Part shown: positions 35,960 to 43,525 of the stretch, in pieces
How positions within the stretch are numbered: the stretch's first letter is position 1
How the letters are laid out: every line of letters starts with the position of its first letter
Source of the DNA: a bacterium
GTDB lineage: Bacteria; Bacillota_I; Bacilli_A; RF39; UBA660
Direction: 5' to 3'
Assembly (NCBI GenBank): GCA_029099845.1
Contig: JAQXOT010000011.1
Coordinates: forward strand, 41,044 to 105,043
Length of the DNA: 64,000 nt
Position numbers and translations under genes: made by a program
Notes under the pieces: generated by a model
What the model saw: the letters and a program-made list of their open reading frames with translations, nothing else
The model's database searches: none
Told to the model about the DNA's origin: nothing

Positions 35960-37576
35960 ATGGGGAAAGTCAAAAAGACTACAAAAAATGATAGAACTTT
36001 ATTTTTTGTATGTTTATTGATATTTGTTGTAGTAGTTTTTATAGTGCCGTCTATACAGACAGTTACTACTAATATTGTTAATGTTAAAAATTCAAGGACG
36101 TTGCGTATTCTTTCATCATATGAGAACGAAGTGGTTGAAGAAGAAGTTAAGGCTTATGCTAAAAGCATTGATAAGCAAGTATCTTTTACTTATATGGGTG
36201 ATTTGGATATTGTTAGTGAGTTAAATAATAATTCTTCAAATTATGATGCTGTATGGATTTCTAATTCAATGTGGTTGTATATGCTTGATAATTCTTATTT
36301 AACAAGTGACTCAAAATCAATAAGTATTAGTCCCGTTGTATTTGGAATAAAAAGAAGTAAAGCTTTAGCTTTGGGACTTGTTGATACTGATGTTACTAAT
36401 ATGGATATTCTTAATTTGGTTAAAGAAAAAAAGATTAAGTATGTTATGTCTTCTGTAACTCAGACTAATGTAGGTGCTACTGCATATTTAGGATTTTTAT
36501 CATCTCTTGCTGGTAATCCAGAGGTTTTAACTGAAGAAATGTTGGATGATGAAAATTTAGTTAATGATTTAATTAGCTTATTTTCTGGAGTTGAACGGGT
36601 TAGTGGTGATGAATCTTATCTTGAGGATATGTTTTTAAATGATGATAATTATGAGGCGGTTATTGCTTCTGAGGCATCTTTAATTAATATTAATAAGCGA
36701 TTACAAAAACAAAATAAAGAAGAATTATATTTTATATATCCAAGTGATGGAGTAGCTATTAATGATTCAGCGTTTGCTTATATTAATAGTGATGAGGTAA
36801 AGAAGGAGACTTTTTTAGAGATTCAAAGTTATTTGCTTAGTGATGATGGACAGAAAATGCTTGAAGAAAAAGGGCAAAGAACTTGGTATGGTGGAGTTAG
36901 TGATAATAGTAATATTAAGATTTTTAATCCTAAGTGGGGAATTGATACTAAGAAGTATTTGAACGTGACGAAATTTCCTTCCAAAAATGTTATTACTAGA
37001 GCAATTAATTTATATATTGAGAAGTTAAGAAAGCCAACACATGTAGTTTTCTGTTTAGATTATTCTGGCAGTATGTCTGGTGATGGTATAGAAGAATTGA
37101 CAAATGCGATGGATTATATTTTAGATTATGATAAAGCTTCAGCTGATAAGTTGCAGTTTTCTGAAAATGATAAGATAACAGTTATTACATTTAATTATGA
37201 GGTTGATGATATTTGGCAAGCAGAAAGTGGTTATAATACTGCTGATTTGATACGTAATATAAATAATAAGTATCCAGTTGGTTCAACAGCACTTTATGAT
37301 GCTATTATAAGTGGCCTTGATATTTTAAGTGAGGATTCTGATGAGTATACTAAAACAATTATTGCTATGACTGATGGAGCGGTAAATGTTGGTACTTTTG
37401 AACATTTATCTTCGTATTATAAAAGTATTAATTCCGATATTCCTATTTATAGTATTACTTTTGGCGATGCCCGTGAATCACAATTAGAAGAAATTGCTAA
37501 ATTATCAAATGCTAGAGTTTTTGATGGTAAAACTAATTTATTAGAGGCTTTTAAAGATGTTAGAGGGTATAATTAG
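35960..37576 (+). CDS. membrane-anchored protein: solute-binding-protein-like domain fused to C-terminal vWA domain (TerY-like)
   Basis: N-terminal TM; vWA MIDAS motif VVFCLDYSGSMSGDG with ...GSTALYDAI...AMTDGA; the N-terminal domain is paralogous to ORF 38198..39388. Confidence 0.7.
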   Translation: MGKVKKTTKNDRTLFFVCLLIFVVVVFIVPSIQTVTTNIVNVKNSRTLRILSSYENEVVEEEVKAYAKSIDKQVSFTYMGDLDIVSELNNNSSNYDAVWISNSMWLYMLDNSYLTSDSKSISISPVVFGIKRSKALALGLVDTDVTNMDILNLVKEKKIKYVMSSVTQTNVGATAYLGFLSSLAGNPEVLTEEMLDDENLVNDLISLFSGVERVSGDESYLEDMFLNDDNYEAVIASEASLININKRLQKQNKEELYFIYPSDGVAINDSAFAYINSDEVKKETFLEIQSYLLSDDGQKMLEEKGQRTWYGGVSDNSNIKIFNPKWGIDTKKYLNVTKFPSKNVITRAINLYIEKLRKPTHVVFCLDYSGSMSGDGIEELTNAMDYILDYDKASADKLQFSENDKITVITFNYEVDDIWQAESGYNTADLIRNINNKYPVGSTALYDAIISGLDILSEDSDEYTKTIIAMTDGAVNVGTFEHLSSYYKSINSDIPIYSITFGDARESQLEEIAKLSNARVFDGKTNLLEAFKDVRGYN

Positions 37577-37584
37577 GTGTTATT

Positions 37585-38205
37585 ATGAAAAATAGTGAAA
37601 TTGTATCGGCAGCTATAGGTGGAACGTTTTTTGCTATACCTTATCTAGCTTTATCAGTGCCAATTATACCATCCTTAGCAATTGGTGCATGTGCTTTTGT
37701 AGCAGGAGAGCTAGTTTTAAAAAAAGATACTAAATTAAGTTTGAAAGAAAGTAATTTTTCTTTATACCAGACGTTGGAAGAGGCTAAAAAGCAAAATAAG
37801 CATATTTTTGATATGATATCGATGATAGAAAATGCGTCGGTAAAGAAAGATCTTAATGAGATTAATGATTCAGTTACTAAAATTATTAAAACAATTGAAA
37901 AAGCTCCAACTAAAGAAAAACAATTAAAAAATTTCTTTGATTATTATTTACCGGTTACAGTTAAACTAGTAGATCGATATGATGAGATTGAAAATCAAAA
38001 AATATCTTCTGTTGAAAGTAAGAAGTTTAATGAATCAACGGAAAAGATGATTAGTGAAATTAATAGTGTTTTTAAAAAATTCTTAAATAATTTATATCAA
38101 TCTGATATGTTGGATGTTAATGTAGAAATAAAGGTATTAAATTCTATGCTTAAAGCAGATGGACTAGATAAAGATGAATTGAAAGTTGGTGGAAAAGATG
38201 AATAA
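37585..38205 (+). CDS. XpaC-like membrane protein (5-bromo-4-chloroindolyl phosphate hydrolysis protein family)
   Basis: 206 aa with an N-terminal double-TM followed by a helical region, which is the XpaC architecture. It pairs with a TelA/YaaN-like gene, as xpaC-yaaN do in B. subtilis. Confidence 0.5.
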   Translation: MKNSEIVSAAIGGTFFAIPYLALSVPIIPSLAIGACAFVAGELVLKKDTKLSLKESNFSLYQTLEEAKKQNKHIFDMISMIENASVKKDLNEINDSVTKIIKTIEKAPTKEKQLKNFFDYYLPVTVKLVDRYDEIENQKISSVESKKFNESTEKMISEINSVFKKFLNNLYQSDMLDVNVEIKVLNSMLKADGLDKDELKVGGKDE

Positions 38206-42166: not shown

Positions 42167-42379
42167 TATGTTGATGTTAAACGGGTTTAATTTTAATTAA
42201 AAATATGTGGCAATTTTACTTCTTATTTTTCTAAATATATTTTTCTTTTTTTAGTGATAGTGTATAATTATTAATATAGGTGGGTTGTGGAAAGCAATTT
42301 TAATTGATTTTTATAGTTTGAATTATTATTTAGAATCGTATTATTTTAGTGTTGATAACGATAAAGGGTAGGTAGTGAT

Positions 42380-43525
42380 ATGGATTTATTAGATAATAAA
42401 TTTTTGGATAGTATTAATGATGGATTTACTTCAGCAAAGACGCATATTTCTGATATTTGGAATGGTGGTGCGGCTCAATGTTTTAATTCGGCTTTTGATA
42501 GTGTTATTAATTCTATTGATAAGATATATGAGGCTATTGATAATTTTAATACTGTTTTGGATAAGTTGGCTATTTATAAGCAAAATCAAAATCAGATTGA
42601 AAATTTGCAAGCACAAATTGCAGAAGAAATGCAAAACCCAAGTGTAAAGCAGACAAACTCATATATGGAAAATGGTGTTTTAAAGACTTCGGTTGTTTAT
42701 GTCGTTGATCAAAATTTAATAGATTCGTTGCAATTGCAGATTGATAAGCTTTTGAAAGAAAATGAAATTTTAAAAACTGAGATGCAAGTTTTATGTAATT
42801 TAGTTTCTTCTGAGGAGTTATCTAATCTCACTCAATCAAATCTAAAACCTAAAAATAATAGTGATATTGCTCACAGGGGCTATAATCCTGGGGGTATAAG
42901 AGAAAATTCTATTGAGGCTTTTCGCTTGGCTGGTGAAAAAGGTTTTTGGGGATGTGAAACTGATGTTAGGTTTGATTCTAATGGCAATTTGATTTGCAGT
43001 CATAATACTCCACAGGGTAATGAAAATCCTCCTACTTTTGAAGAATATTTGGATATTTGTAAAGAGTATGGTATGACAGCTATTATTGATTTAAAATATG
43101 AGAATGGCTTTAAATGGAATTCTTATGATTCGGAATTGTCTCCTGCAATTATAAAAACAATTGAAGAAAAGGGAATGATGGATAGTTGTGTTATTCAAAC
43201 TAATTATTTTAATGATATTCCATTTATTAGATCTCAATCAGACGATGTAAGAATATGGTTGCTTGGACATAATACTGTTACTGATGAAAATATAGAATTA
43301 GCTCTTGAAAATAATGTTGAGTGTATTAATTTTAATAATACTGAAAATAATGCATATAGGATAAAAAAGGTTACAGATGCTGGAATTGATGCGTGTGTTT
43401 GGAATGTTCAAACAGAACAAGGAAAAAATATATTATTAAATGATGGGGCAAAATATATTATGTCAGATAATGTTTTGGGTATTACTCCTTATCAAGAGGG
43501 AGAAGAAGATTTTAATAATTTATAA
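42380..43525 (+). CDS. glycerophosphodiester phosphodiesterase (GDPD)-domain protein with WxG-containing helical N-terminal domain
   Basis: C-terminal half IAHRGYNPGGIRENSIEAFRLAGEKGFWGCETDVRFDSNGNLICSHN is a GDPD active-site region; the N-terminus has SDIWNGGAAQCF (a W-x-G-x-A-A-x-x-F motif as in WXG100/LXG) followed by a coiled coil. Confidence 0.65.
   Translation: MDLLDNKFLDSINDGFTSAKTHISDIWNGGAAQCFNSAFDSVINSIDKIYEAIDNFNTVLDKLAIYKQNQNQIENLQAQIAEEMQNPSVKQTNSYMENGVLKTSVVYVVDQNLIDSLQLQIDKLLKENEILKTEMQVLCNLVSSEELSNLTQSNLKPKNNSDIAHRGYNPGGIRENSIEAFRLAGEKGFWGCETDVRFDSNGNLICSHNTPQGNENPPTFEEYLDICKEYGMTAIIDLKYENGFKWNSYDSELSPAIIKTIEEKGMMDSCVIQTNYFNDIPFIRSQSDDVRIWLLGHNTVTDENIELALENNVECINFNNTENNAYRIKKVTDAGIDACVWNVQTEQGKNILLNDGAKYIMSDNVLGITPYQEGEEDFNNL

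Follow-up and report, generated by a model that had tools for sequence, protein, structure and literature searches.

The best described relatives of the genes treated in this study are the xpaC-yaaN (telA) pairs of Bacillus subtilis, Listeria (lmo1966-67) and Enterococcus faecium, in which a membrane hairpin protein (PF10112) and a soluble protein (TelA, PF05816) are encoded in one operon. The xpaC-yaaN pair of B. subtilis is among the core members of the sigma-W regulon (PMC3498285). Deletion of xpaC in E. faecium was reported to lower the daptomycin minimal inhibitory concentration 8-fold, to increase binding of the drug and to redistribute phospholipid microdomains, though only with telA intact (PMC6811118), and a Listeria telA mutant is cited as being 4-fold more nisin-sensitive (cited in PMC12791056). 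Here, we describe a related operon of five genes (g1 to g5) in a 64,000-nt stretch of DNA, called the window in the following, from a bacterium of the RF39 lineage (GenBank assembly GCA_029099845.1, contig JAQXOT010000011.1, positions 41,044 to 105,043; ~27% G+C). The operon and a sixth gene located downstream of it (g6) are carried by an ~11.3-kb element inserted into the sporulation gene yabG, and a preliminary description of the sequence had taken the six genes as one coherent, membrane-associated module.

Two further types of described systems are relevant for comparison. The SPFH protein YdjI of B. subtilis is soluble, requires two membrane proteins for its membrane location and takes part in the sigma-W envelope-stress response (PMC8581546). 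Sporulation intervening elements, such as skin in sigK, SPbeta in spsM and yin in yabG of Clostridium botulinum, split a sporulation gene and carry large serine recombinases. Of these, yin is a prophage with a single recombinase, and its authors stated that, as of 2023, they had found no other insertion into yabG in public databases (PMC10747680).

The Operon and Its Parts

Six co-oriented open reading frames (ORFs), all on the + strand, are located between positions 35933 and 43525, inside the element. Five of them (g1-g5, 35960-42166) form a translationally packed operon, with distances of 8 nt between g1 and g2, -8 nt between g2 and g3, 11 nt between g3 and g4, and 31 nt between g4 and g5. 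The sixth gene follows after a gap of 213 nt. Thus, the tight packing initially ascribed to all six genes holds for g1-g5 only, while ORFs, strand and coordinates were as described.

The first gene, g1 (35960..37576), starts with an ATG at 35960 that has an AGGAG sequence upstream, and this start matches the 538-aa protein P0001. Its product combines a predicted signal-anchored solute-binding-like domain (Pfam SBP_bac_11, E = 3.7e-8) with a vWA domain (Pfam VWA, 7e-15). The residues of the metal ion-dependent adhesion site (MIDAS; D-x-S-x-S...T...D) are complete and were found to be invariant across 20 homologs, and the same comparison revealed many invariant Ser/Thr/Asn motifs in the binding domain. 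When the ligand class of the latter was addressed by a profile search of the PDB, matches to the vWA domain only were obtained. The view that this vWA domain is TerY-like found no support: in contrast to the TerY-P triad of vWA protein, PP2C phosphatase and Ser/Thr kinase, none of the six proteins contains a kinase or phosphatase domain, g1 has no PADLOC match, and topology prediction puts the vWA domain outside the cytoplasm. The operon also differs from Ter systems in that Pfam and NCBIfam searches of the element's proteins detected neither TerD nor TerC nor TerB.

The second gene, g2 (37585..38205), belongs to the XpaC family (Pfam Halogen_Hydrol/XpaC, PF10112, 1e-25; 91 bits vs. a cut-off of 29.8) and is encoded on the same strand as telA, with one gene in between. 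Its product is predicted to start with a two-helix membrane hairpin, corresponding to a hydrophobic stretch of residues 6-46, and to have a helical domain in the cytoplasm. The intervening gene, g3 (38198..39388), yielded no match in Pfam; its product is a putative signal-anchored solute-binding-like paralog of the g1 N-terminal domain, to which it is 26% identical over 378 aa (BLASTP, E = 9e-5).

The fourth gene, g4 (39400..40542), encodes a member of the TelA/YaaN family, matched over its full length (Pfam TelA, PF05816, 1.7e-118; 396 bits vs. a cut-off of 30). The protein is predicted to be cytoplasmic and all-helical, with three helices of ~80 residues. A three-dimensional AlphaFold2 model, computed from an alignment of homologs at least 81% identical only, was unreliable (pLDDT 42), and sequence and profile searches of the PDB detected no relative of solved structure. 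Exactly at window position 40114-40115, inside telA, the contigs of three independent same-species assemblies (L086, L090, and L091) come to an end. Since telA is very conserved, these breaks are more likely to originate from k-mers shared with the telA of co-occurring species than from a second genomic copy.

The last gene of the operon, g5 (40574..42166), encodes a tandem AAA+ protein (AAA and AAA_lid_6), in which a degenerate AAA+ fold (residues ~40-260) precedes a second domain of the active type. The second domain belongs to the AAA+ ATPase subfamily of CbbX, SpoVK and EccA, with AAA_lid_6, Walker A and Walker B, whereas the N-terminal region, an extra degenerate AAA+ domain, distinguishes the protein from EccA. 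The nearest NCBIfam models, SpoVK, CbbX and EccA, were matched with 237, 217 and 188 bits, respectively, all below the corresponding equivalog cut-offs of 423, 459 and 467 bits. The best match among solved structures was CbbX (1e-50); EccA was matched with 1.9e-55 in NCBIfam and EccA1 with 3e-41 in the PDB. Judged by these scores, g5 is only a relative within the CbbX/SpoVK/EccA subfamily and not an equivalog of any of its members.

All in all, profile searches of each protein reassigned no domain call of the preliminary description to an unrelated family. The solute-binding-like and MIDAS-bearing vWA domains of g1, the XpaC-like double-helix protein g2, the second anchored solute-binding-like paralog g3 and the TelA/YaaN protein g4 were recovered as described, and so was the GDPD domain of g6 discussed below. 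For g5, the AAA+ subfamily was retained, but the N-terminal domain that had been called unknown turned out to be the degenerate AAA+ fold.

With regard to membrane topology, g1 and g3 each contain one N-terminal hydrophobic transmembrane segment, with a net charge of +4 at the g1 N-terminus, and no transmembrane segment was predicted for g4, g5 and g6. Distant g1-like proteins of Variovorax and Deinococcus start with lipoprotein signal peptides (LAAC and LLGC, respectively). Because of the single N-terminal segments and the lipoboxes of these homologs, the binding domains of g1 and g3 as well as the vWA domain are predicted to be located outside the membrane, with g1 as an N-in signal-anchor protein, while TelA and the AAA+ protein are predicted to be cytoplasmic. 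The small membrane protein g2 could connect parts on both sides of the membrane.

In comparison to the xpaC-yaaN pair, the operon carries g3 between xpaC and telA, the gene of the solute-binding-like/vWA protein in front of them and the tandem AAA+ gene behind them. Counterparts of the extra genes g1, g3 and g5 are not known to accompany the xpaC-yaaN pair of B. subtilis. Anantharaman, Iyer and Aravind (Mol Biosyst 8:3142, 2012) reportedly predicted TelA-centred membrane sensory complexes, possibly with periplasmic-binding-protein-II domains, from comparative genomics. In line with the initial impression that the combination is not a described system, neither literature searches nor PADLOC yielded a matching one. 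Still, the operon is not new as a category but an elaborated XpaC-TelA system, found widely among uncultured gut Bacilli.

Recurrence in Gut Bacilli and Operon Variants

A sequence search with g1 yielded more than 2,300 relatives. In three of them, at 64-72% identity, the order g1-g2-g3-g4-g5 was found in an ordinary chromosomal setting without a GDPD gene or recombinase. For a survey at the species level, one genome per species was scanned, which resulted in 80 loci; every one of them belongs to uncultured Bacilli of the gut or rumen. These loci were tallied for the six proteins, both recombinases of the element and both yabG halves by tblastn and by hidden Markov models built from the loci. 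All five genes g1-g5 were colinear in 57 loci, with median intergenic gaps of 1, -8, 10 and 34 nt; compared with the window proteins, g1 to g5 had median identities of 61, 53, 73, 73 and 51%, respectively. Accordingly, g3 is among the two best-conserved proteins of the module; TelA identity between species was 67-83%. The chromosomal surroundings of the surveyed loci are highly variable and the location of the operon shifts often. The closest relative displays 77% nucleotide similarity covering exactly positions 36106-42152, after which the similarity ends. Downstream of the operon, this relative contains a regulator gene (L098, 7327-7890; helix-turn-helix and WYL-like by eye), with an HD-like fragment between regulator and operon.

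In none of the 80 loci was g6, a recombinase or a split yabG found beside the operon. A yabG fragment located ~5 kb from the module in one locus (L049) was considered as a possible linkage; however, it lies on the opposite strand and shows no other synteny, and was therefore treated as a coincidence. Since the five genes are colinear in 57 of the 80 loci while g6 and the recombinases are absent beside the operon, the conserved unit is g1-g5, which only this species carries on an element. For the preliminary description, this means that the coherent, membrane-associated module is confined to g1-g5, with the GDPD gene as separate cargo. The order g1-g5 does recur outside this genome, while the six-gene set was found in none of the 80 loci. 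The notion of an island specific to the element is contradicted by the survey, given that at least 57 further genomes at the species level have the module as a chromosomal operon, without any link to a recombinase or yabG.

Several loci contain variants of the operon. In eight of them (L019, L021, L031, L042, L065, L066, L067, and L083), g1, a divergent XpaC and g3 are followed by a soluble SPFH protein (Band_7_1, PF13421), which replaces TelA and the AAA+ protein. Three loci contain g1-g2-g3-TelA without the AAA+ gene, and in two others g1 and g3 alone are followed by an uncharacterized 445-aa protein. One metagenome-assembled genome, RUG11788, has two module loci, one with TelA (L028) and a divergent one that is ended by the contig edge before the fourth gene (L084). 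With these Band_7_1 proteins, the variants bear a likeness to pspA-ydjGHI of B. subtilis, in which small integral membrane proteins tether a soluble, scaffold-like protein to the membrane. This is a resemblance of possible working and not of membership; no homologs of PspA, YdjG or YdjH were detected in the module.

Full-length homologs of g1 with ~25% identity were also found on large replicons of other phyla (Proteobacteria, Actinobacteria, and Deinococcus), and in plasmid records the homologs of the module were distant only. In Variovorax, Sphaerotilus and Nonomuraea, the gene order is solute-binding-like protein, TelA, solute-binding-like/vWA protein and a ~210-aa protein with two adjacent transmembrane helices; the Deinococcus cassette comprises the same set without TelA. 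The Firmicute XpaC and these distant two-helix proteins share size, position, topology and a YLP motif. Since such cassettes occur in several phyla, the combination of two binding proteins and a two-helix membrane protein, usually with TelA, appears to be an old and widespread pairing, to which the AAA+ protein would be a lineage-specific addition. On the Variovorax plasmid (L094, 1-15395), the cassette has a flotillin/NfeD-like pair on one side and, ~3 kb away, a Wadjet system (JetA...) on the other. On the Sphaerotilus plasmid (L100, 485-10234), the cassette consists of a hypothetical gene, TelA, vWA and another hypothetical gene, and genes of a PhoX phosphatase and of an extracellular nuclease (ExeM/NucH) lie on its flanks, a hint of a connection with phosphate scavenging in this lineage.

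The Downstream Gene g6

The product of g6 (42380..43525, + strand) contains a WXG-bearing helical N-terminal domain (residues 1-~145) and a GDPD phosphodiesterase domain (residues ~150-381; Pfam GDPD, 1.6e-10) with intact HRG/ENS/ExD catalytic motifs. A search of 1.8 billion representative proteins revealed that both halves travel separately. Copies of the GDPD domain (residues ~142-381) with 50-68% identity end proteins of 244-1097 aa with unrelated N-termini, and the N-terminal ~145 residues were found alone or with other C-termini, one of which is NlpC/P60 peptidase-like by sequence motif. The W-x-G motif (W27-N-G in g6) is kept in eight of eight aligned N-domains; the score for Pfam WXG100 is 16.9 bits (E = 0.0079) and thereby below the cut-off of 27.3, and no LXG match was found in Pfam. 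Neither the JGI metagenome scan nor the phage search yielded relatives of g6, and no candidate for an immunity gene was identified. Likewise, no type VII core genes (EssC etc.) were present among the window ORFs that were read or profiled, those at 1-32 kb being listed by length only. As g6 is absent from all 80 module loci, it is not part of the g1-g5 machine. It is a separate cargo gene, which, from its domain architecture, probably codes for a toxin-like, type VII-secreted (WXG-type) phosphodiesterase effector of polymorphic architecture.

The Element in yabG

The 5′ part of yabG reaches from 35453 up to the crossover core at 35714 (+ strand; Pfam Peptidase_U57, 1.5e-16, profile positions 2-55). 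It is contained in a 100-aa ORF (35453-35755), which matches the YabG peptidase profile over the first 55 positions only. The 3′ part is located at 47041..47558 (+ strand), as supported by PF05582 in gene calls of same-species contigs and by the reading frame of the reconstituted ORF. Direct reading of the sequence revealed AGATG cores at 35710..35714 and 47036..47040, which are candidates for the attL and attR crossover sites, respectively; nine of ten positions are identical between their flanks (AGATGCTGAT vs. AGATGGTGAT). The element, delimited by this 5-bp core at both ends, extends from ~35715 to 47040. In silico joining of 35453-35714 and 47041-47558 yields an in-frame YabG of 259 aa, and the predicted attB junction includes CATATAGATGGTGATAATGAT.

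Two large serine recombinases are encoded at the far end of the element, both on the + strand. Recombinase 1 (43863..45434) contains the Pfam domains Resolvase, Recombinase and Zn_ribbon_recom and weakly matches the NCBIfam models CcrB, CcrC and XisF. Recombinase 2 (45409..46959), likewise assigned by Pfam, has a 26-nt overlap with recombinase 1, the two being 35% identical (self-tblastn). Just upstream of the recombinases, a 40-aa ORF (MESKKEETVIRVYDKNGKNVQDVILEAFEKFLKLKLENIK; 43674..43796, + strand) was found. Two unrelated IMG/VR loci, L096 and L097, contain a related recombinase pair (76% and 68% identity) with copies of this ORF, 85% identical, directly upstream (L096, 2567-2686; L097, 411-524). 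Their cargo differs from that of the window element and comprises a MazF-type toxin, an XRE regulator and a sigma-like protein. Because both loci keep the small ORF and the recombinase pair and yet carry other genes, small ORF and recombinases form a recombination module with exchangeable cargo. The 40-aa protein is a candidate recombination directionality factor or regulator. Within the element, Rfam yielded no match, and a scan for promoters and terminators gave counts no higher than in shuffled sequence.

The same split-yabG arrangement is present in contigs of seven independent samples with 99.1-100% nucleotide identity, and an excised or empty-site form was not among these seven same-species contigs. 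The features of a sporulation intervening element, namely a split gene, a serine recombinase and a precise joining that restores the ORF, were all found, which confirms the element context given in the preliminary description. By analogy to the known elements of this kind, it may be removed from the mother-cell genome during sporulation. With yin of C. botulinum it shares yabG as target gene, and yin was the sole yabG-inserted element that turned up in the literature search. In contrast to yin, however, the window element is a non-prophage element of 11.3 kb with two tandem recombinases, a 40-aa ORF and the cargo of a cellular operon, and the single recombinase of yin is located at the opposite end (PMC10747680).

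Some features of the window outside of the element were also noted. The GC skew switches its sign near 6.5 kb, and the sizes and order of the ORFs at ~6500-16000 would, going by ORF lengths only, fit dnaA, dnaN, recF, gyrB and gyrA. If this assignment is correct, the window is located at the replication origin and the element ~28 kb away from it. Rfam detected a small signal recognition particle RNA at 16901-16996 and a T-box leader at 28937-29142, upstream of a 531-aa ORF (29140-30735) that is a tRNA-synthetase gene according to gene calls of same-species contigs.

Possible Function of the Operon

The published data on xpaC-telA homologs, from which a role in envelope stress would be transferred to g1-g5 by analogy, lead us to propose that the operon is an expanded Firmicute XpaC-TelA envelope-stress pair that forms a self-contained membrane-spanning complex, a proposal to which we assign about an even chance of being right. 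Gene set, gene order, tight packing, domain families, predicted topology and variant pattern are results of the present analysis, whereas the contacts between the parts, the ligand and the substrate of the ATPase are inferred. Outside the membrane, there would be two anchored proteins of the periplasmic-binding-protein fold, with g1 bearing a MIDAS-type vWA domain in addition. Together, g1 and g3 might bind or detect a component of the envelope, a compound acting on the latter, or an anion. XpaC (g2) would couple these surface proteins to TelA (g4) at the inner face of the membrane, where TelA may act as a peripheral membrane scaffold that alters membrane organization or protects the membrane. 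The tandem AAA+ protein g5, with its inactive first and active CbbX-type second domain, would use ATP to remodel or recycle the TelA/XpaC assembly. As the SPFH protein takes the position of TelA in the variant operons, the comparison suggests that both fill a similar place, namely that of a peripheral scaffold kept at the membrane by small membrane proteins.

Several points weigh against this proposal. The genes g1-g5 are known from sequence alone in every organism, and membership in SBP_bac_11 (E = 3.7e-8) does not name the ligand of the binding domain. The scaffold role of TelA rests on analogy and on the SPFH substitution, with a predicted fold of pLDDT 42 and no solved relative. For the relation between XpaC and the distant two-helix proteins, hhalign returned a probability of 2.8%, and their similarity is thus considered as architectural only. 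Moreover, with one distant cassette beside Wadjet and another one beside PhoX and an extracellular nuclease, other roles are possible.

One of these is phage defense, in which the vWA and binding proteins at the surface would detect phage adsorption or injection, and TelA and the AAA+ protein would execute a membrane response, as in anti-phage or abortive infection systems. The preliminary description had considered a defense or stress island. PADLOC (PADLOC-DB 2.0) yielded nothing for g1-g4 or g6 and generic AAA matches only for g5, which weakly resembles the defense ATPase models IetA/IteA (IetA, 1e-12) and TRIP13. Apart from these matches and the proximity of Variovorax Wadjet, the frequent change of genomic location would fit a defense system, some CoCoNuT operons have vWA genes flanking tandem SpoVK-like ATPases (PMC11090510), and phage inhibition is reported in a background statement on the ter/TelA literature (PMC9240799). 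However, the immediate upstream and downstream neighbors of the complete loci (103 proteins; 53 + 50 loci) belong to 115 Pfam families, none of which occurs more than four times, and are overwhelmingly housekeeping proteins such as MutS, RelA/SpoT, ScpA, signal peptidase, D-Ala-D-Ala carboxypeptidase and SpoIVB. Matches to defense models among them are sporadic, with the commonest defense-like family occurring four times. The module is also absent from phage records and IMG/VR, it encodes no nuclease, NADase, pore-former or other recognizable effector, and its high conservation between species and fixed gene order are unlike those of patchy, fast-evolving defense genes. Since housekeeping neighbors, absence from viral data and strong sequence conservation all argue against a typical defense system, we consider this role quite unlikely. 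Of the two halves of the earlier suggestion, defense therefore finds little support, and stress is in better accordance with the published xpaC-telA data.

It has also to be considered that the binding proteins capture a phosphate- or oxyanion-type anion or a metal, upon which TelA and XpaC would signal or sequester, a role in keeping with the name of TelA. The SBP_bac_11 family includes molybdate- and sulfate-type binders, and the match of the g1 binding domain to this family, its many invariant Ser/Thr/Asn motifs, the PhoX and ExeM/NucH flanks of the Sphaerotilus cassette and the periplasmic-binding-protein-II domains reportedly predicted for TelA complexes would be in line with sensing or handling of such ligands. 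On the other hand, the Pfam-based ligand assignment is weak, and the operon has no conserved association with a permease, ABC ATPase, kinase or transcription factor. A binding-protein-dependent ABC uptake system is not apparent either, as neither a permease nor an ABC ATPase was found in the operon or the related loci examined, and ABC families occur in 2-3 of the 103 neighbors. Furthermore, the phenotypes published for telA and xpaC relate less to anions than to antibiotics acting on membrane or wall, and an anion- or metal-related role appears unlikely to us. A secretion unit of all six genes, in which an EccA-like AAA+ protein chaperones the WXG-GDPD protein for export with TelA, XpaC and vWA as accessories, is very improbable: although EccA, the ATPase of type VII secretion, is a relative of g5, the N-domain of g6 bears a WXG motif and both genes are adjacent, g6 is absent from all 57 loci carrying g5, a gap of 213 nt separates the two genes, g5 stays below the EccA equivalog cut-off (188 vs. 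467 bits), and the window ORFs covered by the type VII search described above include no FtsK/EssC-type ATPase.

Conclusion

TelA and XpaC recur in screens for nisin, bacitracin and daptomycin resistance, with a mechanism so far lacking. The findings presented here place the pair in a larger, strongly conserved set, which consists of two surface binding proteins, a membrane hairpin, TelA and an ATPase. The variants point to the role of TelA, which is replaceable by a soluble SPFH protein and workable without the ATPase. For organisms in which xpaC-telA affects antibiotic tolerance, the operon yields concrete hypotheses, and it opens a way towards the mechanism of TelA. In addition, a putatively sporulation-excised element can hold an ordinary cellular operon, beyond phage genes, which is uncommon as the cargo of an element that splits a gene.

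In a more far-reaching version of the envelope-stress proposal, which we regard as conceivable but rather doubtful, g1-g5 and the sibling operon with SPFH would be a widespread machine across the envelope that has so far escaped description, in which the MIDAS-vWA/binding protein pair at the surface reports envelope damage or a ligand via XpaC to a cytoplasmic TelA lattice that is remodeled by the tandem AAA+ protein in the way Vps4 acts on ESCRT-III. If true, TelA would gain a defined biochemical role, decades after it was named and with no mechanism assigned to it so far, and the locus described here would also be the first cellular operon known on a developmentally excised yabG element.

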